Source of the DNA: an uncultured candidatus Brocadiaceae bacterium
Lineage (GTDB): Bacteria; Planctomycetota; Brocadiia; SM23-32
Assembly: GCA_964434535.1 (NCBI GenBank)
Contig: CAYSWA010000007.1
Location: 8,321 to 72,320, forward strand
Direction: 5' to 3'
Length of the DNA: 64,000 nucleotides
Shown: positions 41,624 to 61,482 of the stretch, piece by piece
Position numbering within the stretch: position 1 is the stretch's first letter
How the letters are laid out: each line of letters opens with the position of its first letter
Made by a program: the position numbers and the translations under genes
The notes under the pieces: generated by a model
Seen by the model: only the letters and a program-made list of their open reading frames with translations
What the model was told of the DNA's origin: nothing
The model's database searches: none

Positions 41624-43213
41624 TCAGCCCTCCAGGACCGCCTGCGCCTGGTCCAGGCCGGCCTCCATGACGTAGGGGATGCCGGAGATCTCGGCCGCCT
41701 GGCGGGTCAGGGCGATCAGGTCGGCGCGGCCGATCGTGGAGACGCTGAAGTTGCGGCTGCCGGCCATGATCTGCTGGAGGCCGATGCTGAGCTTCTGCAC
41801 GAAGGTGTAGACGCCGATCGCCCCGAGGGGCATCTGCTGGACCTCGTCGCCGTACTTGTCCTTCAGCTCATCGTAGCAGTAGAAGATCTCCTCCACTGTG
41901 TCGCCGTGTTCGCTGACCGTGTTGGGCAGGTTGCCCTCGCGCAGCCATAGGCCGATGTTCTTGCCGACGAAGCCGGGGATCATCAGCGCGCGGCCCATGC
42001 AGACGGCCTTGGTCCACGGGGCGCCCATGGCGAGCGCCTTGAAGATGTGGTCCTCCTGGGAGAGCCCGCCGGCGATGGCGATGTCGGGCGGCTCGATGCC
42101 GCGCTCGGCGAGCGCCCGGCAGAACTGGCAGACGAGCGACTGGAGGTAGAAGGTGGGCACGCCCCACTCGTTCATCATGCGCCAGGGGCTCATGCCCGTG
42201 CCGCCCGGGGCGCCGTCGATCGTCAGCAGCGAGATGCCCGCCTCCGCCGACCAGCGCAGCGCCATGGCCAGCTCACGCGCGCCGTAGGCCCCGGTCTTGA
42301 GGCTGACGCGCCTGGCGCCCAGATCGCGCAGGCGCTGCACCTCGGCCATGAAGCCTTCCTTGTCGACGAAGCCGAGCCGGCTGTGGCGCTCGAAGGCCGT
42401 GATCTCGCCGTCCTGGAAGGCCTCCTCCACGTGCGGCAGGCTCGGGTCGGGCGTGACCAGGTAGCCGCGGCTCTGGAGATGGCGGGCGCGCTCGATGGTG
42501 TCGACCTTGATCTCGCCGCCGATGCACTTGGCCCCCTGGCCCCACTTCAGTTCGATGGTCTCGACGCCGAGCTCGCGCACGCAGTAATCGGCCACGCCCA
42601 GGCGCGTATCCTCGACGTTGAGCTGGACGACCAGGTCGCCGTAGCCCTCGTGGAACCTGCGCCACTGGCTGACGCGGCGGTCCATCTCCGGGCTCTTGGC
42701 GACCTTCCCGTCGGCGTCCAGCTCGAGCTCGGGGTCGACGCCGCAGACGTTCTCGCCGCAGACCAGCGTGATGCCGGCCAGGGCGGCGCCGACGGCGAAG
42801 CTGTCCCAGTTCTTCGCGGCGACGTCGGTCGAGCCGAGGGCGCCGGTGAAGACGGGAACGCGCAACTTCACCTTGCTCTGCCTGCCGTACTCGACCTCGG
42901 TCGAGACGTTCGGGAAGATGCAATCGTCGGGGGTGGCCTGCAGGTCGCCCGTCAGCCCCTCGGCGCCGAGGGCGTAGCCCTGGATGTTCACGTGCGAGTA
43001 GTCGACCGGGTAGTCCTTCTCGGCGCCGGCCGTGATCTCGCCGAAGGGCGAGGGATAGAGCAGTTCGCGCCCGCGGAAGGACGCCTGAAAGATCTCACAG
43101 TTCCCGCGGCATCCGTCCACGCAGCGGGCGCAGATGCCGCTGCTGGGCGTGATGTCCCGGCTGCGGTTGCGGCACTGGAGCGCCTCCGAACCGTTCGGTC
43201 TCATCAACGTCAT
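41624..43213 (-). CDS. FMN-binding glutamate synthase family protein (stand-alone GltB-domain-2-like) with N-terminal Cys cluster
   Basis: GAPGGTGMSPW and IAIAGGL motifs of the GltS FMN domain. N-terminal CARCVDGCRGNC (C-x2-C-x3-C-x3-C). ATG 43213 with a GGAGG SD. Confidence 0.8.
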   Translation of the reverse strand: MTLMRPNGSEALQCRNRSRDITPSSGICARCVDGCRGNCEIFQASFRGRELLYPSPFGEITAGAEKDYPVDYSHVNIQGYALGAEGLTGDLQATPDDCIFPNVSTEVEYGRQSKVKLRVPVFTGALGSTDVAAKNWDSFAVGAALAGITLVCGENVCGVDPELELDADGKVAKSPEMDRRVSQWRRFHEGYGDLVVQLNVEDTRLGVADYCVRELGVETIELKWGQGAKCIGGEIKVDTIERARHLQSRGYLVTPDPSLPHVEEAFQDGEITAFERHSRLGFVDKEGFMAEVQRLRDLGARRVSLKTGAYGARELAMALRWSAEAGISLLTIDGAPGGTGMSPWRMMNEWGVPTFYLQSLVCQFCRALAERGIEPPDIAIAGGLSQEDHIFKALAMGAPWTKAVCMGRALMIPGFVGKNIGLWLREGNLPNTVSEHGDTVEEIFYCYDELKDKYGDEVQQMPLGAIGVYTFVQKLSIGLQQIMAGSRNFSVSTIGRADLIALTRQAAEISGIPYVMEAGLDQAQAVLEG

Positions 43214-43460
43214 GGCCTCTGCTGCCTCCTGTCCTGAGGAAAGCGAATGCGATCCGGCTCTTCGGATCTGTCCACGGAATGCACAACACGTTCGGCTTGA
43301 CACGCGCCGGGGGTACTTACGCAAGGCGGATACCGCTCGGCCGTTCGTGGGTCGAAAACGGGGCAGGAGGCCCCTCGGGGCCGTCATCGTCGGGGCGGAG
43401 GCGTCGGGGGCATGGGCAGGGGCTGAGCGGTGCGCAAGACGTGCACATGCCCCGGCCGGC

Positions 43461-45797
43461 TCAGCCGCCGAGGCCGTAGGAGGCGATGCGGGCCCGCAGC
43501 GTGTTGCGGCTGATCCCGAGCTCGCGGGCCGTGCGGGTCTGCACGCCGCCGTTGGCCGCCAGCACGTGGGCGATGAGCGTCCGCTCGACCAGGCCGATCA
43601 CCTCGTCGTAGAGCTCGCCGTCGCTGCCGCGTCGCAGCTCGGCGATCAGGGGCAGCAGCGCCTCCCTGAGGTCGCGGGCCGGTTCGGGGCGAGGGCGCCG
43701 CCGGGGCGCGCAGATCGACTCGGGCAGCAGCTCGACCGTGATCGTGGCGGTCCGGGTCAGCACGATGGCCCGCTCGATGCAGTTCTCCAGCTCGCGGACG
43801 TTGCCGGGCCAGTCGTAGGCCGTCAGCATGTCCAGGGCCTCGCGGGAGAGCTTGTCGACCTGCTTGTCGTCTTCGCGGCTGAAGACGCCCATGAAGTGCT
43901 CGACCAGCAGGGGGATGTCCTCTCGCCGCTCGCGCAGCGGGGGCAGGCGGATGGGCAGGACGTTGAGCCGGTAGTAGAGGTCCTGGCGGAACCCGCCGGC
44001 GTTGACCCGGTCGGCCAGGTCCACATTCGTGGCCGCCACCACGCGGACGTCGACCCGGACGGCCTGCGAAGCGCCGACGCGCTCGAATTCCTTCTCCTGG
44101 AGCACCCGCAGGAGCTTGACCTGGAGCTGCGGGCTCATGCTGCTGACCTCGTCCAGGAAGACGGTGCCCCCGTCGGCGAGGGCGAACCGGCCGGCGCGAT
44201 CGCGCGTGGCGCCGGTGAAGGCGCCCTCGACGTGGCCGAACAGCTCGGACTCCAGCAGCGAGTCGGGCAGGGCGCCGCAGTTGACGGCCACGAACGGGCC
44301 GTCGGCCCGGGGGCTGTTGGCGTGGATGACGCGGGCGATCAGCTCCTTGCCCGTGCCCGTCTCGCCCTGGATCAGCACGGTGGCGTTGCTGTCGGCGACG
44401 GCCTCGGTCAGGGCGAGCACCTCCTGCATGGGCTGCGAAGCGCCGATGATGCTGCCCTGGTCGTAACGCGACTCGGCGTGCGCCTTTGCGCCGGCGCCCC
44501 GCAGCAGCTCCTCTTTCTCGATGGCGACCATGCGGTTGATCTTGATCGCCTGCGAGATCATGGAGCCGACGATCTGCAGCAGGCGCTGGTCCTTCTCGAG
44601 CGTCTCGGCGTCGACGAACTCGCGGTCCGCGCTCAAGGCGCCGATCACCTGCTCCTCCAGGCGCAGCGGGATGCAGACGAAGGAGACGGGGGCGGCGCGC
44701 ATGTCCCGCCGGCGGGCGCCGGTGCGGTCCAGGAAGCGCGGGTCGCGCCGGATGTCGGGCACGGCCACCGCCGTCCCGCTCTCGACCACTGCGCCGGTGA
44801 CGCCCTCGCCGGGCTGGTAGACGCCCCGCGACATCTCCTCGCGGCTCAGCCCGTGGGCGGCGGCGATGCGCAGCGTGCCGCTGGCCCGGTCCTCCAGCAC
44901 CAGCGTGCCGCGTTTCATCTTCAGCCCGCGCGCCAGCACGGACATGATGGTTTCGAAGACGACGTCCAGGTCGAGGCTGCTGCCCAGGGCGCGGCTGATC
45001 TCCCTGAGCAGGCGCACCTCGAGCTCCTCGCGTCGCCGGGGCACCGGCTCGGGCCGGCCGTCGACCGACTCGAAGTAGTGCGGCGCCCCGATGCGGCAGG
45101 CGGGCCGGTCCTCCGCCTTGCGCACGATCAGCTCGATGCCGCCGCTGCCGACGCCGAGCTCCAGGACGACCTGGGTGACGTGCAGCAGCTTGGCCAGGAA
45201 GCTCGGAGAATGCGCGTGCTTCTCGGTGATCCAGTAGGCGACGGTCGACAGGTCGTAGAGCTTCGGGCAGAGGTGGCTGAAGAACTTCAGCACCTGCTCC
45301 TCGCCGCCCCACAGCTCCAGCATGGCGGTGGGGCTGTCGAAGACGTAGCGCCCGCGCGCGCCGGCGCGCTCGGCGAGCTCGCTCATGATCCCGCGCAGCC
45401 GGTCCGCGTCCGCCGGCTGCGGCACGCGGGTCACCGTCAGCCCGTCCGGGCCCGCCTCCCGGTAGAAGTCGGTGAAGAAGGCGTCGTCCTTGCCGAAGCC
45501 CGAGGTGAACGCATCGACCAGGTGGAAGCGCGGCAGCAACTCGTCGGTGACGTAGCGGTTGAGGATCGACTGGGGCGAGTGGCTGAAGCTGACGAAGAAG
45601 ATGCGGCTCTCGTCGCGGGCGGCCGTGGAAAGGAAGCTGCGGATGAAGAACTCCACCGGGGCGCCCGAATCGACCTGCCAGACCAGGTTGTCCCCGGCGC
45701 ACAGGCCGCTCAGTATGCGGTCCAGATACTCGACGCCGCTGCTGATGTGGTGAGCTTCCATCGGTGCTTGGTTCCCCTGAGTGGTTACGAAGTGCAC
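43461..45797 (-). CDS. sigma-54-dependent transcriptional activator, NifA-like (degenerate KaiC-like domain + GAF + AAA+ + Fis HTH)
   Basis: AAA+ block [15 protein letters not shown]...[15 protein letters not shown] (GAFTGA motif). GAF block ([12 protein letters not shown]). C-terminal HTH ([17 protein letters not shown]). The N-terminal roughly 250 aa resemble a KaiC/RecA-like fold lacking the P-loop. The start could be GTG 45797 or ATG 45763. Confidence 0.85.
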
Positions 45798-45966: not shown

Positions 45967-46035
45967 TGCGGGTGGAGTGGGCGAGTGACGGGGGGCCGGC
46001 CATTGAAGGCCTACTGCGGGAGGTGTGAGTCCACG

Positions 46036-47466
46036 GTGTCGCGCGCGCAGGGGTGCCTCGTCCCTTACGAGGGACCGCGCGAGGAGTGCGGGATCATCGG
46101 CCTCTACGGGGTCGAGCACGCCGCGCGGCAGGCGCACCTCGGCCTGTATGCGCTCCAGCACCGGGGGCAGGAGTCGGCGGGCATCGTCGCCTCCGACGGC
46201 GAGGGCATCCAGAGCGCGAAGGGCCTCGGCCTGCTGGCCGAAGCGATCGAGGCGTCGGCGCTGGCCGACCTGCCGGGGCACATCGCCATCGGCCACGTGC
46301 GCTACTCCACCACGGGCGCCAGGCGGGTGCAGAACATCCAGCCGCTGGTCATCGAGTACGCCGGCGGCATCGTGGCCGTGGCCCACAACGGGAACCTGAC
46401 CAACGCCCGCGCCCTGCGGCGGCGCTATGAGCAGAAGGGCTCGATCTTCCAGACCTCGACCGACAGCGAGGTCTTCGTCCACCTTCTCGCTGACCCCGAG
46501 CACCTCGGCGCCCCGGACCCGCTCAAGGAGGTGCTCCGGCACGTGCGCGGCGCCTACTCGCTGGTGCTTCTGACGGCCACCCAGCTCATCGCCGCCCGCG
46601 ACCCCCATGGGTTCCGCCCGCTCTGCCTGGGGCGGCTCGACGGCGGCTACGTCGTCGCCAGCGAGACCTGCGCGCTCGACCTGCTCGGGGCCCGCTTCGA
46701 GCGCGAGGTGCAGCCGGGCGAGGTCATCTTCGTCGACGAGGGCGGCCTGCGCGTCGAGACGTTCGCCGAGCCCCGGCGCGGCGCCCGGTGCGTCTTCGAA
46801 TACATCTACTTTGCCCGGCCGGACAGCGTCATCTTCGGCGAGACGGTCCACAACGTCCGCGTGCGCCTGGGGGAGAACCTGGCCAAGGGGGCGCCGGCGG
46901 ACGGGGACATCGTGGTCTCGGTGCCGGACTCGGGCAACTCGGCCGCGCTCGGCTACTCCCGCCGCTCGGGCATCCCGCTCGACATCGGCTTCGTGCGCAA
47001 CCACTACATCGGACGCACCTTCATCACCCCGGCCGAGGAGGCCCGCGCCAGCAGCGTGCGCATCAAGCTCAACGTCGTGCGCGACGTGGTGCGCGGCAAG
47101 CGCCTGGTGGTGGTGGACGACTCGATCGTGCGCGGCACCACATCCCGCGCGCGCATGGCGACGCTGCGGGAGGCCGGCGCCCGCGAGGTGCACCTGCGCG
47201 TCAGCGCGCCGCCGATCCGGCGCCCTTGCTTCTACGGCATCGACTTTCAGCACCCCGACGAGCTGATCGCCCGCGACCACAGCGTCGAGGAGATCGCCCG
47301 CTTCATCGGCGTCGACACCCTCGGCTACCAGAGCATCGAGGGGCTGATCGACGCCGTGCCGGGCGGCCCGGAGGACTACTGCTGCGCCTGCTTCACCGGC
47401 GAGTACCCGGTCGAGCTGACCGAGGCGATGGCCAAGGACGACCTGGAGCCCGGCCGCCGCCGCTGA
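46036..47466 (+). CDS. purF: amidophosphoribosyltransferase
   Basis: Catalytic CGIIGLYG N-terminal nucleophile after a short propeptide, PRTase motif VVVDDSIVRGTT, and C-terminal Cys cluster (CFYGID...CCACFTGEYP). The GTG start at 46036 is inferred and could lie elsewhere. Confidence 0.85.
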   Translation: MSRAQGCLVPYEGPREECGIIGLYGVEHAARQAHLGLYALQHRGQESAGIVASDGEGIQSAKGLGLLAEAIEASALADLPGHIAIGHVRYSTTGARRVQNIQPLVIEYAGGIVAVAHNGNLTNARALRRRYEQKGSIFQTSTDSEVFVHLLADPEHLGAPDPLKEVLRHVRGAYSLVLLTATQLIAARDPHGFRPLCLGRLDGGYVVASETCALDLLGARFEREVQPGEVIFVDEGGLRVETFAEPRRGARCVFEYIYFARPDSVIFGETVHNVRVRLGENLAKGAPADGDIVVSVPDSGNSAALGYSRRSGIPLDIGFVRNHYIGRTFITPAEEARASSVRIKLNVVRDVVRGKRLVVVDDSIVRGTTSRARMATLREAGAREVHLRVSAPPIRRPCFYGIDFQHPDELIARDHSVEEIARFIGVDTLGYQSIEGLIDAVPGGPEDYCCACFTGEYPVELTEAMAKDDLEPGRRR

Positions 47467-47580
47467 GCCCCGGCGCTCGGCAGACCCTGGGAAGTATCTG
47501 GCCTGGCGCCTGGACCCACGGAATGGTAGGATAGGCGCAGAACCTACGGCTCTGTATGTTGCATCGGCAGGAGCGCGGCC

Positions 47581-49134
<1,554 letters not shown>

Positions 49135-49224
49135 GATCGGACCGCCGAACCTACCACCATGTCGGCGCCGGGCCGGCCGGCTCGCCACCTCACCAGCGTA
49201 TCCCTGCCTGTCGTATCCTCCTGC

Positions 49225-49239
49225 TGGCAAACCGTTTGC
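49225..49239 (+). promoter_or_regulatory. sigma-54 (-24/-12) promoter TGGCAA-N5-TTGCG upstream of porin-amt-glnK
   Basis: CTGGCAAACCGTTTGCG has GG and GC separated by 10 nt. It lies about 110 nt upstream of the porin start. Confidence 0.5.
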
Positions 49240-49347
49240 GCAGGACATGGCGTCTCCGCCCCCGCGTTGGCACGCGGCTCGCCTATGCGGAGGTCGAAGC
49301 GGGGCCCCGTCGCGGGCCGCGCAGCCCTGGAGAGCGGGAGGTGAGAG

Positions 49348-50124
49348 ATGCGTGGAAAGCTGATTGCTGTTCTGGTCGCAACGTGCTGCGCCGTGGGGCC
49401 GGCCGCCCGGCGGGCCGACGGCGAGGAGAAGGACTGGTCGATCGAACTGGACGCCGCGCTGAACAGCAAGTACGTCTGGCGCGGCATCAACCTGGTCGAC
49501 GACTGGGTCTTTCAGCCCTCCGTCACCGGCGCCTACCGCGGCCTCTCGCTCAACGTCTGGGGCAACATGGAGCTGTCGAACGAGAACGTCTACCCCGGCC
49601 ACGGCGACGCGGCGGGCGACTTCACCGAGATCGACTACACCCTCGACTACTCGTGGGCCTGGCGGAGGCTGAACTTCTCGCTCGGCACCATCTACTACGA
49701 CTTCCCCAACACGGGCCTCGCCTCCACGCTGGAGCTCTACGGCGCCGTGGGGCTCGATGCGCCGCTGGCCCCGACGTTGACCGTCTACCAGGACGTCAAG
49801 GAGGCCGACGGCACCTACGCGGCCCTCTCGGTGAGCCATGCCTTCGAGGACGTATGGTCTCCTGCGGAGGGCGTGGCCGTCTCGCTCGACCTCGGCGCCT
49901 CGGTGGCGGCCGGCTCGTCCAACTTCAACAAGTTCTACTACGGGGTCGACGACGAGGGCCTGGCGGACCTGCTGCTCTCGGTGGGGCTGCCGGTGCGGCT
50001 CGGCGAGCGGTGGACGCTGAGGCCGTCCGCCAGCTTCTCGACGCTGCTGGACGACGATATTCGCTCATCGGTCAGTGACGCGAGCAACGCCTGGTACGGC
50101 GTCTCGCTGGGCTGTGCGTTCTGA
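49348..50124 (+). CDS. outer-membrane beta-barrel porin (amt-associated family)
   Basis: Signal peptide MRGKLIAVLVATCCAVGPAA. Alternating amphipathic beta-strands with aromatic girdle residues, ending in a C-terminal aromatic F. RBS GGGAGG. Immediately upstream of amt. Confidence 0.6.
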   Translation: MRGKLIAVLVATCCAVGPAARRADGEEKDWSIELDAALNSKYVWRGINLVDDWVFQPSVTGAYRGLSLNVWGNMELSNENVYPGHGDAAGDFTEIDYTLDYSWAWRRLNFSLGTIYYDFPNTGLASTLELYGAVGLDAPLAPTLTVYQDVKEADGTYAALSVSHAFEDVWSPAEGVAVSLDLGASVAAGSSNFNKFYYGVDDEGLADLLLSVGLPVRLGERWTLRPSASFSTLLDDDIRSSVSDASNAWYGVSLGCAF

Positions 50125-50151
50125 ATGCCTTCTACGGCAGGAGAGAAGAAG

Positions 50152-51501
50152 ATGAGGCGCACACTAAGGGGGTTGGGTCTGGTGGCACTGGCCCTCGGCA
50201 TCTGCGGCTCGCTGGCTTTTGCGCAGGAGACGGGGCCGCCGGAGGGCGACGTGGCCGAGTCGCTGGCGACGCTCCAGACGAACCTGAACGTGGTCTGGAC
50301 GGCCGTGGCGGCGTTCCTGGTCTTCTTCATGCAGGCCGGGTTCGCCATGGTGGAGACGGGGTTCACGCGGGCCAAGAACGCCTGCAACATCCTGATGAAG
50401 AACCTCATGGATTTCTCCATCGGGTCCATCATGTGGTTCCTGGTCGGTTTCGGGCTGATGTTCGGAGCCGGGGCGAGCGGCTGGGTGGGGATGAGCCACT
50501 TCGCCGCGACGGACTACAGCGCCAACGAGCTGAACTGGACGTTCTGGCTCTTCCAGTGCGTCTTCGCCGGCACGGCGGCCACCATCGTCTCGGGCGCGAT
50601 GGCCGGGCGCACGAAGTTCCACGGCTACCTGGCCTACAGCGCGGTGATCTGTGCGTTGATCTACCCGATCAGCGGCCACTGGGCCTGGGGCAGCCTGTTC
50701 GGTGTCGGGGAGGGCTGGCTGGAGGCGCGCGGTTTCGTGGACTTCGCCGGCTCGACCGTGGTCCACAGTTGCGGGGGCTGGCTCGCTCTGGCCGGGGCCG
50801 TTGTGCTCGGCCCGCGCACGGGCAAGTACGCCCCCGACGGCCGCTCCCGCGCCATCCCCGGCCACAACATCCCGCTGGCGGCGCTCGGGGTCTTCATCCT
50901 CTGGTTCGGCTGGTTCGGCTTCAACCCCGGCAGCACGACCGTGGGCGACCCGGCCCTGGGCTACGTGGCCATGACCACGAACCTGGCAGCCGCGGGCGGG
51001 GCCATCGGGGCCATGCTCGTCGCGTGGCTGCGGTTCCGCAAGCCCGACGTTTCGATGGCCCTCAACGGCGTGCTGGCCGGCCTGGTGGCCATCACTGCCG
51101 GCTGCGCCAACGTCAGCGTGCCCGGCGCCATGGTGATCGGCTTCCTGGCCGGCGTGCTCGTCGTGGTGTCCGTCGAGTTCATCGACAAGGTGCTCAAGGT
51201 CGACGATCCGGTCGGCGCGGTCAGCGTGCACGGCGTCTGCGGCGTCTTCGGCACCATCATGGCCGGGCTGCTGAACAGCCCGTCCGCCCCGGGCTACGCC
51301 GCGGGCGCGAGCGTCGGCACGCAACTGCTCGGCGTCGGCGTCATGTTCGCCTGGGCCTTTGGCACGGGCATGGCGCTGTTCACCCTGATCAAGCTCACCG
51401 TCGGCCTGCGCGCCTCACGCGACGAAGAGCTGCGCGGGCTGGACATCGGCGAGCACGGCATGGAGGCATATAGCGGCTTCCAGGTCTTCACCACCACCTG
51501 A
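50152..51501 (+). CDS. amt: ammonium transporter
   Basis: Amt/MEP signature regions ([39 protein letters not shown]), signal peptide, 11 TM helices. Confidence 0.9.
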
Positions 51502-51520
51502 GGGAAGGAGGGCTGCAGGC

Positions 51521-51862
51521 GTGAAACTGATCATCGCCTACATCCAGCCCGAGAAGCTCAGTGACGTCAAGCAGGAGCTCTACCGGGCCGAGGTCTTCAA
51601 GATGTCCGTCACCAACGCGCTCGGCTGCGGCCAGCAGAAGGGCTACACCGAGTCCTACCGCGGCGTTGAGATGGAGGTGAACCTGCTGAAGAAGGTCCGG
51701 CTGGAGATCGCGGTCAACGAGGACTTCGTCCGGCCGACGGTCGAGGCGATCATCGCGGGCGCGAAGACCGGCCAGATCGGCGACGGGAAGATCTTCGTGC
51801 TCGACCTGCACCAGTGCATCCGCATCCGCACCGGCGAGACGGGGAGCGGGGCCATCGGCTGA
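51521..51862 (+). CDS. glnK: nitrogen regulatory protein P-II (GlnK, amt-linked)
   Basis: [13 protein letters not shown]...T-loop YRGVEMEV...RIRTGETG. 19 nt downstream of amt. Confidence 0.9.
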
Positions 51863-51935
51863 ACGTCCGCCCGGAAAGAGGACGAAAGGAGGGTGCGCCC
51901 GTGAGACGATGGCCCAGAGCGGGCGGGGCGCGCCG

Positions 51936-51986
51936 AACCTACGTGAATGTGGGGAGGGGCACCTCGAACCTACGCGATAGTAGGTT
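51936..51986. promoter_or_regulatory. AACCTAC half-site (51936-51942) plus inverted repeat AACCTAC-GCGATA-GTAGGTT (51967-51986); candidate regulator binding sites upstream of glnA
   Basis: Perfect 7-bp arms with a 6-bp spacer. Related sites occur at 47526-47560 and 49131-49154. Confidence 0.4.
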
Positions 51987-52065
51987 GTTCACGGAAACGG
52001 TAAGCGGGCCTGAGATTGCGTAAGGCGTTGCAGATAAGTGATGCTTCGTGTCACTTGATTCTGGG

Positions 52066-52160
52066 AGTGTGGCATGGCCCTCCGGCCCAGAGGGGCCTCC
52101 GGCCCGGCGGGAAGCCCGTGCCACCGAACCGCGGCCCATAATCTCAAGTGTCAGGGACCA
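52066..52160 (-). repeat. structured dispersed repeat, copy B (inverted relative to copy A)
   Basis: Its reverse complement matches the 10351-10401 core at 50 of 51 nt and shares the terminal GGCCATGCCACACT. The centre differs, carrying a GGGCCGGAG direct repeat. Confidence 0.7.
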
Positions 52161-52186
52161 GTAGCTTACGGAAGGCCGAGGAGCAT

Positions 52187-52201
52187 TGGCACGGCCGTTG
52201 C
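52187..52201 (+). promoter_or_regulatory. sigma-54 promoter TGGCACG-GCCG-TTGCT for glnA
   Basis: Near-perfect match to TGGCACG-N4-TTGCW. The GG and GC are 10 nt apart. About 78 nt upstream of the glnA ATG. Confidence 0.65.
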
Positions 52202-52278
52202 TTAGGAGTTGGGCAACTGAATGGCGGGCGCCGCATCCGCCTGGGCGCCGCGGCAACCCGAAGGAGGGAGGACGGCAG

Positions 52279-53610
52279 ATGGAGATGAAAAACAGGGACT
52301 TCGTTCTGAAGGCCGTCAGCGACCACAAGGTGAAGTTCATCCGCCTCTGGTTCACCGACGTGCTCGGCTTCCTGAAGAGCTTCGCGATCACGGCCGAGGA
52401 GCTGGAGGAGGCGCTCGACGAGGGGATGGGCTTCGACGGGTCGTCGATCGAGGGCTTCGCGCGCATCCAGGAGAGCGACATGATCGCCCGGCCCGATCCG
52501 AGCACGTTCGCCATCCTGCCATGGCGTCCGACCGAGGACGGGGCGGTGGCGCGCATGTTCTGCGACGTGCTCCAGCCGGACGGCACGCCGTATGAGGGCG
52601 ATCCCCGGTGGGCCCTGAAGCGCAACCTGGAGAAGGCGGCGCAGATGGGCTACCGATTCTACGTCGGCCCGGAGCTGGAGTTCTTCTACTTCAAGGACGC
52701 CTCGACGGTGGCCACGCTCGATGCCGGCGGCTACTTCGACCTGACCCCGCTGGATGTGGCGAGCGACCTGCGGCGCGACTCGGTGCTCGCCCTGGAAAAG
52801 CTCGGCATCCACGTCGAGTACAGCCACCACGAGGTCGCACCGAGCCAGCACGAGATCGACCTGCGCTTCATGGACGCCCTCTCCATGGCCGATGCCGCGA
52901 TGACCTACCGGCTCACCGTCAAGGAGGTCGCCCTCCAGCACGGCGTCTACGCCACCTTCATGCCCAAGCCGATCGCCGGGGAGAACGGCAGCGGCATGCA
53001 CACGCACCAGTCGCTCTTCGCCGGGGAGGAGAACGCGTTCTTCAGCGCCGACGACGAGTTCCACCTCTCGAACGTGGGCAAGTCCTACATTGCCGGGCTG
53101 CTGACCCACGCGCGGGAGATCTGCTCGCTGGTCGCCCAGTGGGTCAACTCCTACAAGCGGCTGGTGCCGGGCTACGAGGCGCCGGTCTACGTCTCGTGGG
53201 CGCGCCGCAATCGCTCGGCGCTGGTGCGGGTGCCGATGTACAAGCCCGAGAAGGCGAAGGCGACCCGCGCCGAGTTCCGCTGCCCCGACCCGGCCTGCAA
53301 CCCCTACCTGGCCTTCGCCGTGATGCTGGCCGCCGGCCTGAAGGGCGTCGAGGAGGGCTACGAGCTGGCGGACCCGGTCGAAGAGGACATCTTCGAGATG
53401 ACCGAGGCCGAGCGGGAGGCGCGCGGCATCCTCTCCCTGCCGGGCAACCTGGCCGAGGCCATCGCCGAGACCGAACGGAGCGAACTGGTCCGCACAGCGC
53501 TCGGGGACCACATCTTCGAGAAGTTCATCGCCAACAAGAAGATCGAGTGGGACGGCTACAGGATGCACGTCAGCCGCTTCGAACTGGACAAGTACCTCCC
53601 TATCCTCTGA
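52279..53610 (+). CDS. glnA: glutamine synthetase, type I
   Basis: ATG 52279 with AAGGAGGGAGG upstream. GS beta-grasp and catalytic motifs (KFIRLWFTD, GSSIEGF, MPKPIAGENGSGMHTHQS, adenylylation-region NPY). Confidence 0.9.
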   Translation: MEMKNRDFVLKAVSDHKVKFIRLWFTDVLGFLKSFAITAEELEEALDEGMGFDGSSIEGFARIQESDMIARPDPSTFAILPWRPTEDGAVARMFCDVLQPDGTPYEGDPRWALKRNLEKAAQMGYRFYVGPELEFFYFKDASTVATLDAGGYFDLTPLDVASDLRRDSVLALEKLGIHVEYSHHEVAPSQHEIDLRFMDALSMADAAMTYRLTVKEVALQHGVYATFMPKPIAGENGSGMHTHQSLFAGEENAFFSADDEFHLSNVGKSYIAGLLTHAREICSLVAQWVNSYKRLVPGYEAPVYVSWARRNRSALVRVPMYKPEKAKATRAEFRCPDPACNPYLAFAVMLAAGLKGVEEGYELADPVEEDIFEMTEAEREARGILSLPGNLAEAIAETERSELVRTALGDHIFEKFIANKKIEWDGYRMHVSRFELDKYLPIL

Positions 53611-53696: not shown

Positions 53697-56600
53697 ATGG
53701 GTGGCGAACGGGAACAGACGGACGACCCTCGCCAGGACGGCGATCCCGACCAGCGCCGGGGGGCGATGGACCGCGCGGGACGGCCGCGTGGCGGGGGGCT
53801 CTACGATCCGCGCTTCGAGCACGATGCCTGCGGGGTCGGCTTCCTGGCCCGACTCGACGGCGAGGCGCACCATCACGTCGTCGCCGACGCCGTGGAGGTG
53901 CTGGCCAACCTCGGGCACCGTGGCGCCGTCGGCGGCGACCAGGCCACGGGCGACGGCGCGGGCCTGCTGGTTCAGATGCCGGATGCGTTCATGCGCCGGG
54001 TCGCCGGCGAGTGCAGCGTCGATCTGCCCGGGCCGGGCCAGTACGCCGCCGGCATGGTCTTCCTGCCCGACGAGCCGGCCGCCGCCGAGCGCTGCATGAG
54101 CGCGCTGGAACGGGCGAGCCAGGCCGAGGGCTGCCTCCTGCTCGGCTGGCGCAAGGTGCCGACCTCGGGCGAGCACCTGGGCGAGCTTGCCCGCAGCACC
54201 CGGCCCGACATCCGCCAGGTCTTCGTCGCGCCCGGCCGCGTGCCGCCGGGCGGGTTCGAGCGCAAGCTCTACGTCCTGCGCCGGCGGGTCGAGAACGAAG
54301 TGGCCGGCTGGCGCGACGAGGCCACCGCGCAGTTCTACGTCGCCAGCCTCTCCAGCCGCACCGTCCTCTACAAAGGGATGCTCAGCGGCACGCAACTCGT
54401 GCGCTTCTACCCGGAGCTGGACGAGCGGGACTTCGCCTGCGCCTTCGTCGTCGTCCACCAGCGCTACAGCACGAATACCTTCCCCACCTGGCAGCTCGCA
54501 CAGCCCTTCCGCATGCTCGCGCACAACGGCGAGATCAACACCCTGCGCGGGAACGTGAGCCACATGCGCGCCCGCGAGGCCGAACTGGCCAGCGAGCTGT
54601 TCGGCGACGACATCGAGAAGGTCAAGCCCGTCATCGTGGAGGGCGGCAGCGACTCGGCGATGCTCGACAACGCGCTGGAGCTGCTGACCATGGCCGGCCG
54701 CTCGCTGCCGCACGCGGCCATGATGCTGGTGCCCGAGGCATGGGGCGGCAAGTTCCACATGAGCGAGGACCGGCGCGCCTTCTACGAATACCACGCCGCC
54801 ATCATGGAGCCGTGGGACGGCCCGGCGGCGCTGGTCTTCACCGACGGGCGCTACATCGGCGCCACGCTCGACCGCAACGGGCTGCGCCCCTGCCGCTTCA
54901 CCGTCACCGGCGACGGCTACGTCGTGCTCGCCTCCGAGACCGGCGTGCTCGACATCCCGCCGAGCCGCATCATCCGCCACGGCCGGCTCCAGCCGGGCAA
55001 GATGCTGCTGGTGGACATGGAGGAGAACCGGATCGTCTCCGACAACGAGATCAAGGCCCGCATGGGCCGCCAGCGGCCCTACCGGCGCTGGGTGCGGGAC
55101 AACCGCATCGAGCTGCGCGGCCTGTTCGCCCCGTCGGAGATCCCGCCCGAGGACCCCGAGGAGCTGCTGCGCAAGCAGCACGCGTTCGGCTACACCCGTG
55201 AGGAGCTCTCCATGGTCATCGGCCCCATGGCCTCGCAGGGCCAGGAGGCCGTCGGCTCGATGGGCAACGACGCGGCCCTGGCCGTCTTCTGCGACCGGCC
55301 GCAGCTCCTGTTCGCCTACTTCAAGCAGCTCTTCGCCCAGGTGACCAACCCGCCGATCGATCCGCTGCGCGAGCAGCTCGTCATGTCGCTGATGAGCTTC
55401 GTCGGGCGCGAGCGGAACTTGCTGGACGAGACCCCCGAGCACTGCCGGCGGCTCAAGATCCCGCATCCCGTCCTCACGCCGGAGGACACGGTGAGGCTCC
55501 GGGGCGCCGACCACCCCGACCTGGTCACGCGCGACGTGGACATCCTGTTCGAGGCGGGCGGCGACGGCAAGGCGCTCAAGGTCGGCCTGGAGCGCGTCTT
55601 CGCGAAGGCCGAAAAGGCGATCGCCGACGGGGCCAGCATCCTGATCCTGACCGACCGCCACATGGACGAGGACCACGCGCCGATCCCGGCGCTGCTCGCG
55701 GTGGCCGGGCTCCACCATCACCTGATCCGCAGGGGCCTGCGCACGCGGGCGGGCATTGTGGTGGAGAGCGGCGAGCCGCGCGAGGTCATGCACTTCGCGC
55801 TGCTGGTCGGCTACGGGGCGAACGCCGTCTGCCCGTACGTGGCCTTCGCCACGGTGCGGCAACTGGCGGAGGAGGGGCTGCTCGCGCGGGAGACCAGCCC
55901 GGCGCGGGCGGCCGACGCCTACATCACCGCCGTCAAGAAGGGGCTGCTCAAGACGTTTAGCCGCATGGGCATCTCGACGATCCGCAGCTACTTCGGCGCG
56001 CAGATATTTGAAGCCGTCGGGCTCTCGCGCGGGCTGGTGGACGAGTACTTCTGCGGCACGGCCTCCCGCGTGGAGGGGATCGGCCTGGAGGAGATCGCCG
56101 GCGAGGCGGCCCGGCGCCACCGCGCCGGCTTCCCTGCGGGCCGGGCGCCGGCGGCGCTGCTGGAGGCCGGCGGCGCCTACCACGTCCGCGTCGGCGGCGA
56201 GAGCCACCTCTGGACGCCCGAGGCGCTCCACACGCTTCAGCAGGCCACGCGCACCGACGACTACGGCCTGTTCCGCCGCTACACGGCGCTGATCGACGCG
56301 CAGTCCGAGCGGCGCGTCACGCTGCGGAGCCTGTTCCGGTTCCGCGAGACGGAGCCCGTGCCGCTGGAGGAGGTCGAGTCGGTCGAGTCGATCATGCGGC
56401 GGTTCTGCTCGGCGGCGATGTCCTTCGGCTCGATCAGCAAGGAGGCGCACGAGACGATCGCCACCGCCATGAACCGGCTCGGGGCGAAGAGCAACTCGGG
56501 CGAGGGCGGGGAGGACCGCGAGCGCTACCGCCCGCTGCCGAACGGGGATTCGCGCTGCTCGGCGATCAAGCAGGTCGCCTCGGGGCGGTTCGGCGTCACG

Positions 56601-58322
56601 ACCGAGTACCTGGTCAACGCCCGCGAGCTCCAGATCAAGATGGCCCAGGGGGCCAAGCCGGGCGAGGGCGGGCAACTGCCCGGCCACAAGGTCAGCAGGG
56701 ACATCGCCCGCGTGCGGCACACAACGGCCGGCGTGACGCTGATCTCGCCGCCGCCGCACCACGACATCTACTCCATCGAAGACCTGGCGCAGCTCATCTA
56801 CGACCTGAAGGCCGTCAACCGCGAGGCCCGCGTCTCGGTGAAGCTCGTCAGCGAGGTCGGCGTCGGCACCATCGCCGCCGGCGTGGCGAAGGGCAAGGCC
56901 GACATGGTGCTGATCGCCGGCCACGACGGCGGCACCGGCGCCAGCCCGCTGACCGCCATCCAGCACACCGGCCTGCCATGGGAGCTCGGCCTGGCCGAGA
57001 CGCAGCAGACGCTGGTGACCAACCGCCTGCGCGAGCGCATCCGCGTGCAGGTGGACGGCCAGCTCAAGACCGGGCGCGACCTGGCGGTGGCGGCGCTGCT
57101 CGGCGCCGAGGAGTTCGGCTTCGGCACAACCGTGCTGGTCACGCTCGGCTGCGTGATGATGCGCAAGTGCCACATGAACACCTGCCCGGTCGGCGTCGCC
57201 ACTCAGGACCCCGTGCTGCGGGCGCGCTTCGCCGGGAAGCCCGAGTACGTCGAGCGCTTCTTCCGCTTCATGGCGCAGGAGCTGCGCGAATGGATGGGCA
57301 AGCTCGGGTTTCGCACGCTCGACGATATGGTTGGCCGCGTCGAGATGCTCGACGTCGAGCCGGCCGTCGAGCACTACAAGGCCAGGGGGCTGGAGCTGGG
57401 CGCGCTGCTGGAGGCGCCGCAGGCGCCGGAAGGCACGTCCCTGCGCTGCACCGGCGGGCAGCAACCCACCGAGCTGGCCGAGCCCGAGCGTGAGCTGCTC
57501 CGAGTGGCGCGCCCGGCGTTGGAGGAGGGCCGCCCGGTGCGCGTCGAGCTGCCGATCCGCAACGTGCACCGCACCGTCTGTGCCACGCTGAGCGGCGAGG
57601 TGGCCCGGCGCTACGGGGCCGAAGGGCTGCCCGAGGGCACGGTCCGGGTCTGGCTGCAGGGTTCGGCCGGGCAGAGCCTGGCGGCGTTCCTGGCGCGGGG
57701 CGTGGAGGTGCGCCTGGAGGGCGAGGCGAACGACTACACGGCCAAGGGCATGTCCGGCGGGCGGCTGGTGGTGGTGCCGCCGCCGGACGCCGCCTTCCTG
57801 CCGCACGAGAACATCATCGTGGGCAACGTCGTGCTCTACGGGGCCACGGGGGGCGAGGCGTTCATCTGCGGCGTGGCGGGGGAGCGGTTCGCCGTGCGCA
57901 ACAGCGGCGCGACGGCCGTCGTCGAGGGCGTCGGCGACCACGCCTGCGAGTACATGACCGGCGGCGTGGTGGTCGTGCTCGGCTCGACCGGCTACAACTT
58001 CGCCGCCGGCATGAGCGGCGGCGTCGCCTACGTCTACGACGAGTCCGAGGCGTTCGGCACCCGCTGCAACCTGGACATGGTGGACCTGGAGAGCGTGCGC
58101 GGCGAGGAGGACCGCCGCCGGCTCCGGGCCCTCGTCGAGAAGCACCGGCGCCTGACCGGCAGCGCGCGGGCCGCCATGCTGCTGGAGAACTGGCAGGGTC
58201 AGCTTCCGCTCTTCGTCAAGGTGATGCCGCTCGAGTACCGCGAGGTCCTCCAGCGCATGCGCCTGGAGGAGCACCGCGACAGCGAGACCGTCTCGGCCAC
58301 CGAGGAGGTCTACCATGGGTAA
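53697..58322 (+). CDS. gltB: glutamate synthase large subunit
   Basis: N-terminal amidotransferase nucleophile in ...LYDPRFEHDACGVGF, FMN domain, 3Fe-4S Cys cluster, and C-terminal GXGXG beta-helix. 1541 aa. The start is ATG 53697 (GAGGA SD) or 53766. Confidence 0.9.
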   Translation: MGGEREQTDDPRQDGDPDQRRGAMDRAGRPRGGGLYDPRFEHDACGVGFLARLDGEAHHHVVADAVEVLANLGHRGAVGGDQATGDGAGLLVQMPDAFMRRVAGECSVDLPGPGQYAAGMVFLPDEPAAAERCMSALERASQAEGCLLLGWRKVPTSGEHLGELARSTRPDIRQVFVAPGRVPPGGFERKLYVLRRRVENEVAGWRDEATAQFYVASLSSRTVLYKGMLSGTQLVRFYPELDERDFACAFVVVHQRYSTNTFPTWQLAQPFRMLAHNGEINTLRGNVSHMRAREAELASELFGDDIEKVKPVIVEGGSDSAMLDNALELLTMAGRSLPHAAMMLVPEAWGGKFHMSEDRRAFYEYHAAIMEPWDGPAALVFTDGRYIGATLDRNGLRPCRFTVTGDGYVVLASETGVLDIPPSRIIRHGRLQPGKMLLVDMEENRIVSDNEIKARMGRQRPYRRWVRDNRIELRGLFAPSEIPPEDPEELLRKQHAFGYTREELSMVIGPMASQGQEAVGSMGNDAALAVFCDRPQLLFAYFKQLFAQVTNPPIDPLREQLVMSLMSFVGRERNLLDETPEHCRRLKIPHPVLTPEDTVRLRGADHPDLVTRDVDILFEAGGDGKALKVGLERVFAKAEKAIADGASILILTDRHMDEDHAPIPALLAVAGLHHHLIRRGLRTRAGIVVESGEPREVMHFALLVGYGANAVCPYVAFATVRQLAEEGLLARETSPARAADAYITAVKKGLLKTFSRMGISTIRSYFGAQIFEAVGLSRGLVDEYFCGTASRVEGIGLEEIAGEAARRHRAGFPAGRAPAALLEAGGAYHVRVGGESHLWTPEALHTLQQATRTDDYGLFRRYTALIDAQSERRVTLRSLFRFRETEPVPLEEVESVESIMRRFCSAAMSFGSISKEAHETIATAMNRLGAKSNSGEGGEDRERYRPLPNGDSRCSAIKQVASGRFGVTTEYLVNARELQIKMAQGAKPGEGGQLPGHKVSRDIARVRHTTAGVTLISPPPHHDIYSIEDLAQLIYDLKAVNREARVSVKLVSEVGVGTIAAGVAKGKADMVLIAGHDGGTGASPLTAIQHTGLPWELGLAETQQTLVTNRLRERIRVQVDGQLKTGRDLAVAALLGAEEFGFGTTVLVTLGCVMMRKCHMNTCPVGVATQDPVLRARFAGKPEYVERFFRFMAQELREWMGKLGFRTLDDMVGRVEMLDVEPAVEHYKARGLELGALLEAPQAPEGTSLRCTGGQQPTELAEPERELLRVARPALEEGRPVRVELPIRNVHRTVCATLSGEVARRYGAEGLPEGTVRVWLQGSAGQSLAAFLARGVEVRLEGEANDYTAKGMSGGRLVVVPPPDAAFLPHENIIVGNVVLYGATGGEAFICGVAGERFAVRNSGATAVVEGVGDHACEYMTGGVVVVLGSTGYNFAAGMSGGVAYVYDESEAFGTRCNLDMVDLESVRGEEDRRRLRALVEKHRRLTGSARAAMLLENWQGQLPLFVKVMPLEYREVLQRMRLEEHRDSETVSATEEVYHG

Positions 58323-61015: not shown

Positions 61016-61017
61016 AC

Positions 61018-61482
61018 CACCACGGAGACACCGAGGCACGGAGAACGGCGAAGAAGCGGGATGCCGGCCAGCAGGGCCTGGTGGGCGGAGACGCTGAGCG
61101 AGCAGGTGATCGGGGCGGCTATCGAGGTGCACAAAGCGCTGAGACCGGGCCTGCTCGAGTCCGTATACGAGGAGTGCCTTTGCCACGAGCTTCACTTGCG
61201 GGGCGTGGGTTTCCGCCGGCAGGTGAACCTTCCGGTGGCCTACAAGGGCATCAAGCTGACGAGCGGGCACCGGATGGACGTGGTCGTGGAAGAAACGCTT
61301 GTCGTGGAGGTCAAGGCCGTGCAGGAGCTATTGCCGGTGCACGAGGCTCAACTGCTCACCTACTTGCGCCTTTCGGGGTTTCCTGTCGGGTTGCTGATGA
61401 ACTTCAACGTTCCGGCGCTGAAAGAGGGGATCGTCCGAAAGGTGCTGTAATAATGAACGCCGTTCTCCGTGTCTCCGTGGTG
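61018..61482. mobile_element. 465-bp cassette with 13-bp perfect terminal inverted repeats (CACCACGGAGACA / TGTCTCCGTGGTG) flanked by 7-bp direct repeat AATGAAC; carries one GxxExxY gene
   Basis: TIR-L 61018-61030 and TIR-R 61470-61482. The extended IR includes CGGAGAACGGCG / CGCCGTTCTCCG. Target-site-duplication-like AATGAAC at 61011-61017 and 61483-61489. The interior GC content is lower. Confidence 0.55.
61061..61450 (+). CDS. GxxExxY protein (PD-(D/E)XK-like nuclease fold)
   Basis: [28 protein letters not shown] (GxxExxY motif)...[16 protein letters not shown], the hallmark of the family. 129 aa. Confidence 0.8.

Follow-up and report, generated by a model that had tools for sequence, protein, structure and literature searches.

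Which protein recognizes the repeated GTAGG-containing half-sites in front of the sigma-54 activator gene of this locus, and which genes are controlled through them? We analyzed this question in the window, i.e. the whole stretch of 64 kb of DNA, which has a G+C content of 71%. The original prediction described a motif of three half-sites, GTAGGAT-N8-AACCTAC-N6-GTATGTT, and these half-sites are found exactly where it had placed them (GTAGGAT at 47526-47532, AACCTAC at 47541-47547 and GTATGTT at 47554-47560). We counted 8 copies of GTAGGWT in the window compared to 1.97 expected, and none of 100 shuffled sequences reached 8. The half-sites had also been predicted to recur before the porin-amt-glnK operon and before glnA, and this is true because 7 of the 8 copies are confined to three intergenic spots (47526-47, 49131-54 and 51936-86). 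In the loci of spirochaete homologs we observed clean palindromes, e.g. ATCCTACATATTTGTAGCC, and therefore we searched the window for CCTAC-N6-GTAGG. Allowing at most one mismatch, this search gave 6 matches per 64 kb versus 0.72 expected, a number reached in 0 of 100 shuffles. The six 16-bp dyads start at positions 47515, 47543, 49120, 49150, 51938 and 51969 and form three tandem pairs (A, B and C) with a spacing of 28, 30 and 31 bp, respectively. All six are located in three regions adjoining nitrogen genes: pair A before the gene of a GAF-AAA+-HTH activator, pair B across the stop codon of this gene and ahead of porin-amt-glnK, and pair C before glnA. An exact TAC-N6-GTA is present in every one of these three regions. 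The layout of the six dyads bears out that one motif is common to the promoter regions of the activator gene, porin-amt-glnK and glnA, but not the parsing of the motif into 7-N8-7-N6-7, since the true structure consists of two 16-bp dyads. ‘GTAGGAT-N8-AACCTAC’ is the right arm of dyad A1 joined to the left arm of dyad A2 and not one unit, while ‘AACCTAC-N6-GTATGTT’ is genuine but is dyad A2 by itself, so that the triple grouping falls away. We also considered GTAGG-N12-CCTAC as the unit; it has a single exact match only, and the N6 dyad was preferred. When a weight matrix was derived exclusively from the orthologous loci, its six highest-ranking positions in the 64 kb were the six sites of the window. 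Five of them score between 17.8 and 22.2, compared to maxima of 30 shuffled windows that average 9.8 and reach 14.9 at the highest; the weakest of the six, dyad B2, scores 9.4 and is sixth best in the window. This confirms that the dyad motif in the window is genuine and highly non-random.

The arrangement of the locus is as follows. Dyad A1 (CCCACGGAATGGTAGG, 47515-47530, matrix score 18.4) lies downstream of purF (45985-47466 in the Pfam gene map) and 66 nt before the ATG of the activator gene; its right arm is GTAGGAT, and it is conserved in the orthologous contig L081. Dyad A2 (CCTACGGCTCTGTATG, 47543-47558, score 19.4) follows 28 bp after A1 and retains its TAC-N6-GTA core in L081. The activator gene itself (47581-49134, + strand) encodes a sigma-54 activator of 517 aa with the domain order GAF-AAA+(GAFTGA)-HTH_8, which we propose as the protein that binds the dyads. 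Dyad B1 (CGTACCTCCACGTAGG, 49120-49135, score 17.8) covers the final codons of this gene together with its stop (49132-49134), and 30 bp further on lies dyad B2 (CCTACCACCATGTCGG, 49150-49165), whose left arm is conserved in L081. Two candidate sigma-54 promoters with the canonical GG-GC spacing follow on the + strand: TGGCAAaccgtTTGC (49225-49239), which matches 9/10 consensus positions and lies 75 bp after B2, and TGGCACgcggcTCGC (49268-49282), which resembles the L081 promoter TGGCACccgcgTCGC and lies 118 bp after B2, a distance similar to that in the orthologs (105-117 bp). They precede the predicted target operon porin-amt-glnK (49348-51862, + strand), composed of a porin-like gene (49348-50124), an ammonium transporter (50125-51501) and PII/GlnK (51521-51862). 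Dyad C1 (CCTACGTGAATGTGGG, 51938-51953) scores 18.8, and dyad C2 (CCTACGCGATAGTAGG, 51969-51984), 31 bp after C1, is a perfect match with the best score in the window (22.2). A sigma-54 promoter matching 10/10 consensus positions (TGGCACggccgTTGC, 52187-52201, + strand) is found 218 bp after C2, ahead of glnA (52279-53610, + strand), which encodes a type I glutamine synthetase and whose start was set by alignment to the GlnA of L081. Downstream of glnA we found gltB, gltD, carA and guaA, and in the 86-bp gap between glnA and gltB neither a dyad nor a promoter was found.

Some further observations concern the coding sequences of this region. The genes between 45985 and 63059 form a cluster of glutamine-making or glutamine-using functions (purF, glnA, gltB at about 53697-58322, gltD, carA and guaA), in which dyads occur at glnA only, and between carA and guaA an ORF of 145 aa (61016-61450) resembles, by eye, the GxxExxY protein family. 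Regarding dyad B1 more closely, the last codons of the activator gene read TTC CGT ACC TCC ACG TAG (F R T S T stop), and the recurrent deviation CGTAC from CCTAC corresponds to the Arg codon of this gene end. The same type of overlap occurs in L081, L082 and L083; as B1 is encoded within the final codons, the binding site and the conserved RFRT tail impose constraints on one another. Upstream of purF and divergent from it, the window contains the gene of another NifA-like activator (43461-45797, - strand) of 778 aa. An extra N-terminal part of about 250 residues, for which Pfam gave no match, is followed by GAF, AAA+ and a different HTH, and the protein scores 495.8 bits in TIGR01817, under the cut-off of 528.85. 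Its gene is followed by an ORF with a Glu_synthase domain (41624-43387, - strand).

Next, we investigated the conservation of the dyads in relatives of the activator. Thousands of relatives exist, all of them named ‘NifA’ by the sources, and the nearest ones (71-80% identical) belong to MAGs labelled Planctomycetota, Desulfomonilaceae or Deltaproteobacteria. As the ortholog set we used six long contigs (L081-L086) with an activator in this identity range, in which the gene order activator-(porin)-amt-glnK-(further amt-glnK copies)-glnA-(nadE)-gltB is maintained. In these contigs one dyad is found 45-60 nt before the start codon of the activator gene, tandem dyads lie across its stop codon with a sigma-54 promoter 105-117 bp further on, tandem dyads are located 81-94 bp before the sigma-54 promoter of glnA, and more dyads occur ahead of the extra amt-glnK copies. 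Overall, the tandem pairs of L081-L086 have a dyad spacing of 30-31 bp and a sigma-54 promoter 75-120 bp downstream. We also enumerated blindly all dyads of a 4-mer and its reverse complement with gaps of 0-12 in 188.5 kb of orthologous DNA. CTAC-N6-GTAG ranked first, and 14 of its 15 occurrences fell into the 7.5 kb of nitrogen-gene upstream DNA contained in these 188.5 kb (p=3.6e-19). More distant spirochaete orthologs (L001-L003 and L013, 52-65% identity) keep the same dyads ahead of the activator gene and also upstream of amt, glnA or GSIII (type III glutamine synthetase). In 37 collected sites, which were chosen by pattern, the inner AC-N6-GT is identical in all, and the flanking T/A is found in 66 of the 74 half-sites. 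No nif genes were found in the window or in L081-L086; in some metagenomic relatives (L093, L095 and L111) the dyads precede nifH. In a Cyclobacteriaceae locus (L030, position 5706) we observed TTTACAAAAATGTAAA between nifH and a frameshifted gene for a regulator of the same NifA-like family with a cysteine motif, and in an AnfA-like locus of Acidobacteriales (L012, 7700-7750) direct TTTGTAC repeats are found instead of full dyads before anfHDGK.

We then approached the association from the side of the DNA and scanned metagenomes for perfect tandem dyads by the DNA pattern alone. This gave 80 loci, 52 of which were kept after removing long hairpins, duplications and satellite arrays. Almost half of the kept loci (23 of 52) adjoin this activator, amt, glnK, glnA or nifH, which is far above the expectation for random neighbours. 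Activator C-termini could be recovered beside the sites in 13 of these 23 loci, and all 13 contain an HTH of the TER[IVM]MGLR type with the full pattern (I/L/V)(T/S)ER(I/V/M)MGLR(V/I)xK(Y/H). Among the genome-scan homologs listed, which are all at most 65% identical to the activator, flanking dyads were observed at 5 of 8 loci with a TER-type HTH compared to 2 of 26 with other HTH types (p=0.0035). Both non-TER exceptions with dyads carry a nearby helix, TERI(L/I)GYK, and for 3 of the 8 TER-type loci no dyad was found within the short flanks examined. These findings support the predicted role of the motif as a nitrogen-regulator site. Two other sequence types were noticed in the course of the scan. 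A perfect palindrome of 48 bp, CCTACCGTGCAGTAGGTGGGGTGATCACCCCACCTACTGCACGGTAGG, occurs with small variations in many high-GC metagenomic contigs (L097, L105, L109, L132, L138, L140, L147, L158, L160 and L163) and has the appearance of a dispersed palindromic repeat element with no relation to the nitrogen sites. In AT-rich contigs (29-34% G+C; L107, L117, L130, L149 and L151) pairs of CCTACATnnATGTAGG are located by ORFs with matches to C2H2 zinc fingers or dual-specificity phosphatases, and this sequence may serve as a promoter motif in the genome of a eukaryote or giant virus.

The activator passes the NCBI NifA model (TIGR01817, 563.2 bits, cut-off 528.85; the best stretch extends over residues 14-450 only), which explains its annotation as ‘NifA’. 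In full-length comparisons it is 52-54% identical to VnfA/AnfA-like proteins, including 54% to a VnfA-like protein of Azotobacter, compared to 42-43% for canonical NifA. The VnfA/AnfA-like set was composed of relatives of the regulator that precedes the alternative nitrogenase H-D-G-K operon in L012. Within the HTH, 21-22 of 45 residues are identical to VnfA/AnfA-like proteins versus 14-17 of 45 to NifA; the activator and the VnfA/AnfA-like HTHs have the common pattern T-x-R-[IV]-[LM]-G-L-R-x-x-K-[YH]. The recognition helix resembles the VnfA/AnfA-like helices TRRVLGLRMGKY and TRRILGLRMEKH, while the canonical NifA helix is TPRQxxYR. From the closer identity to VnfA/AnfA than to NifA, both in the HTH and over the full length, we assign the predicted DNA-binding module of the activator to the AnfA/VnfA branch and not to the NifA type. 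One protein of the comparison, with 522 aa from Azotobacter beijerinckii, has a C-x-C-x4-C motif and the HTH LGLTRRVLGLRMGKY; its organism, length and cysteine motif suggest that this protein is VnfA. The HTH of AnfA-like proteins that carry C-x4-C reads LGLTRRILGLRMEKH. No Cys is present in the first 125 residues of the activator or of its close orthologs, i.e. the N-terminal cysteine motif is absent there. Searches of plasmids for an annotated anfA or vnfA gave none, but only NifA and a homolog on Desulfovibrio pDV1.

For evaluation of the promoters we considered the distance at which an enhancer acts on sigma-54 polymerase (roughly 70-250 bp before a canonical GG-N10-GC promoter). Pairs B and C are located within this distance upstream of canonical promoters (49225 and 49268 for B, 52187 for C), whereas pair A is not. 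A weak sigma-54-like element, CGGCTC-N6-TTGCA, had been proposed to overlap pair A. Its letters are present as written (47548-47563), but the distance from GG to GC is 13 nt compared to the canonical 12, and TTGCA is lost in the closest ortholog; with this wrong spacing and lack of conservation a sigma-54 promoter overlapping pair A is not borne out. In the orthologs a sigma-70-type promoter overlaps the own-gene dyad instead. L082, L083 and L085 contain a TTGAC(A/T)-17-TACAAT promoter whose -10 hexamer TACAAT is placed within the left arm of the dyad, which argues for negative autoregulation by promoter occlusion. A scan of the window from 47400 to 52320 for sigma-70 promoters and terminators found nothing. 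Thus the case for autorepression rests on the orthologs, since the window shows no recognisable sigma-70 promoter at the activator gene.

The leader of glnA differs in length, with 218 bp from enhancer to promoter in the window compared to 81-94 bp in the orthologs. The extra DNA (51986-52186) contains a GC-rich inverted repeat, GTGGCATGGCCC...GCCCGTGCCAC, at about 52067-52123, in which a TGGCAT sits roughly where the -24 box of the orthologs would be. This position of TGGCAT suggests that an insertion may have broken up the original glnA promoter and that another one later took its place. An interpretation of the extra DNA as a repeat element is unsupported: we found 11 matches versus 7.1 expected, an unremarkable fold and no Rfam match.

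Taken together, we consider it likely that the six dyads are the predicted enhancer and operator sites of the adjacent activator (47581-49134), which would switch on amt and glnA and regulate its own gene. Sequence hallmarks of enhancer-binding proteins are present at this locus, namely tandem dyads and a nearby AAA+ GAFTGA/HTH activator that co-occurs with the motif. Our best reading of the sequence is that the activator would be a general nitrogen-assimilation regulator, a one-component bEBP of the NifA/AnfA/VnfA family that is probably self-repressing. Dimers of the activator would bind each dyad via the C-terminal Fis-type HTH, and a pair of dyads separated by about three helical turns (28-31 bp) would nucleate the AAA+ oligomer. 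The pairs at porin-amt-glnK and glnA(-gltBD) would act as upstream activating sequences, from which the ATPase could reach sigma-54 RNA polymerase at -24/-12 via DNA looping and open the complex. Pair A, placed 23-66 nt before the ATG and over the promoter, most likely represses the activator gene (negative autoregulation). The GAF domain presumably reads the nitrogen status via 2-oxoglutarate and/or PII/GlnK, as in NifA and AnfA, whose GAF domains respond to 2-oxoglutarate and PII proteins (PMC12093980); glnK itself is part of the predicted regulon.

It could be argued that the dyads are bound by some other factor, i.e. by the first activator (43461-45797), a Crp/Fnr- or GntR-type regulator or a small HTH_8 protein, and that the adjacent activator uses other sites. 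L082 and L083 do encode a 138-aa HTH_8 protein within the nitrogen cluster, and a similar motif has been predicted in Desulfovibrio, where no TER-type HTH protein is found in the genome. We nevertheless regard this explanation as unlikely: the window, L081 and L084-L086 lack the small HTH_8 gene, the recognition helix of the first activator is unrelated and its gene has no dyads nearby, and the pattern-only search repeatedly recovers the TER[IVM]MGLR activator beside the dyads. Moreover, tandem dyads 75-120 bp before -24/-12 correspond to the geometry of an enhancer-binding protein and not to that of Crp or GntR. The Crp/Fnr- or GntR-type candidates that had been put forward are not needed, as the motif and the adjacent bEBP are found together across phyla and this protein contains an HTH of the VnfA/AnfA type.

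Another reading concerns pair A, which would be an enhancer for positive autoregulation through the weak CGGCTC-N6-TTGCA element. Own-gene activation occurs among some enhancer-binding proteins, and both a GG (47548-49) and a GC (47561-62) are present, but the spacing of the box is 1 nt over the canonical value, and the box, which overlaps dyad A2, is 5-33 bp away from the two dyads, so close that looping from pair A is implausible. Furthermore, the -12 element is lost in the closest ortholog, in none of the orthologs did we find a box with at least 8/10 consensus positions ahead of the activator gene, and the sigma-70-type promoter of the orthologs has its -10 hexamer within the dyad; activation through this element is therefore quite improbable in our opinion. 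Finally, as the dyads are inverted repeats, they could act as RNA hairpins (terminators or attenuators), or could be chance or repeat-element sequences, and the scan did meet unrelated long hairpins and satellite arrays containing the same 16-mer. However, the arms are conserved as sequence, with only 6 of 37 deviating arm pairs still pairing and 1 changed on both sides, and the fold of 47500-47580 is no better than that of shuffled sequences (z=0.13). No Rfam match and no terminator-like site was found, and the enrichment statistics exclude chance. We give next to no credence to such an origin of the palindromes and retain the binding of the adjacent activator to the six dyads as the preferred reading.

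The combination of a cysteine-less AnfA/VnfA-like activator with amt-glnK, glnA and the activator gene as predicted targets, which is maintained in three phyla or more, appears to be new, and no description of this regulon and its lineage spread was found in the searchable literature. We see an even chance for a wider proposal, in which a phylum-spanning clade of cysteine-less VnfA/AnfA-like activators, mis-annotated as ‘nif-specific NifA’, would be the master regulator of ammonium assimilation via CCTAC-N6-GTAGG enhancers. If this is true, the regulon of the clade would comprise amt-glnK, glnA, gltBD, nadE and the own gene, plus nif where present. The clade would span Planctomycetota, Desulfomonile-type Desulfobacterota and Spirochaetota and would fill the role that NtrBC has in Proteobacteria, which would suggest that general nitrogen control is the ancestral job of the NifA/AnfA/VnfA family. 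A survey from 2025 describes NtrB/NtrC as poorly conserved in Planctomycetota, Thermodesulfobacteriota and Spirochaetota (PMC12316311). Nitrogen control is poorly mapped outside Proteobacteria, Firmicutes, Actinobacteria and Cyanobacteria, and for the phyla considered here the locus offers a candidate regulator-operator pair with a defined 16-bp site, a defined protein and a small core regulon. Many proteins that are automatically named ‘nif-specific NifA’ probably regulate ammonium assimilation via an AnfA-like site, and such mis-naming affects metagenome-based diazotrophy calls.

In comparison with known nitrogen regulators, the motif is distinct from the NtrC, NtcA, GlnR, TnrA and AmtR consensus sites, as had been predicted: none of these patterns is present in the three regions, including a TGCACC-N5-GGTGCA-like core of NtrC. 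Enteric NtrC (NRI) has an enhancer at glnAp2 and operators at glnAp1/glnLp. In this textbook system two dyads about three turns apart likewise activate a sigma-54 glnA promoter, the regulon also includes amtB-glnK and glnA, and the same protein represses a sigma-70 promoter that its sites overlap. In contrast, NtrC is a phosphorylated response regulator, whereas the protein of the window is a GAF one-component regulator with no ntrB-like kinase gene adjacent to it. The response-regulator systems GnfM of Geobacter and DVU3220 of Desulfovibrio were set aside as members of another family. With NifA the activator has in common the domain order and the match to the NCBI model, but its recognition helix is not TPRQxxYR, and the NifA site TGT-N10-ACA has zero occurrences in the whole 64-kb window.

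The description of the motif as uncharacterised did not hold, since TAC-N6-GTA is the experimentally defined site of AnfA (PMC7294313) and CTAC-N6-GTAG has been predicted in Desulfovibrionales (PMC4641369). In the latter case, Kazakov et al. 2015 predicted CTACAnnnnTGTAG before nitrogenase operons and assigned it to DVUA0143 (PMC4641369, supplementary file 4). Both motifs are essentially the same CTAC-N6-GTAG dyad, often in tandem before sigma-54 promoters of nitrogen genes, and the Desulfovibrio motif is attributed to a NifA homolog; it differs in being computational only, in its nif targets and in the distance of tandem copies (18 bp compared to 28-31 bp in the window). One activator of pDV1 has no other assignment, and we take this protein to be DVUA0143. 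It shares 46% identity with the window protein and contains the NifA-type helix TPRQMGYR, and a TER-type helix is found in none of the 37 listed D. vulgaris activators. As the presumed DVUA0143 has a NifA-type helix, the HTH type would not be related one-to-one to the motif, unless the attribution is wrong. This NifA-like activator of pDV1 (L207, NC_005863.1 184786-186333) ends in ELGLTPRQMGYRIRQW, a DNA-binding domain that supplementary file 2 of PMC4641369 appears to list under DVU1949, with a different one under DVUA0143. The two labels may be swapped in the table, and if so the NifA-type helix was paired with CTAC-N6-GTAG.

The closest known counterparts are the AnfA and VnfA sites. In Rhodobacter capsulatus, EMSA with the last 72 residues of AnfA and reporter mutants showed binding of this protein to two TAC-N6-GTA sites that lie between its gene and the sigma-54 promoter of anfH, and the site of Azotobacter vinelandii VnfA is GTAC-N6-GTAC (PMC7294313). 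Compared to these, the arms in the window are longer (CCTAC/GTAGG) and the activator lacks the N-terminal cysteine motif. Its predicted targets are amt-glnK, glnA and the own gene instead of anfHDGK or vnfHDGK, and no nitrogenase gene is present in the window that could make an alternative nitrogenase operon the target. The lineages differ as well, since the dyads described here occur in Planctomycetota, Desulfobacterota and Spirochaetota and those of AnfA and VnfA in Proteobacteria. Nevertheless, the regulator is a GAF-AAA+-HTH one-component activator in all these systems, and the AnfA sites have the same dyad core and spacing, with two tandem sites just past the regulator gene and before a sigma-54 promoter, as observed for the dyads that we describe.
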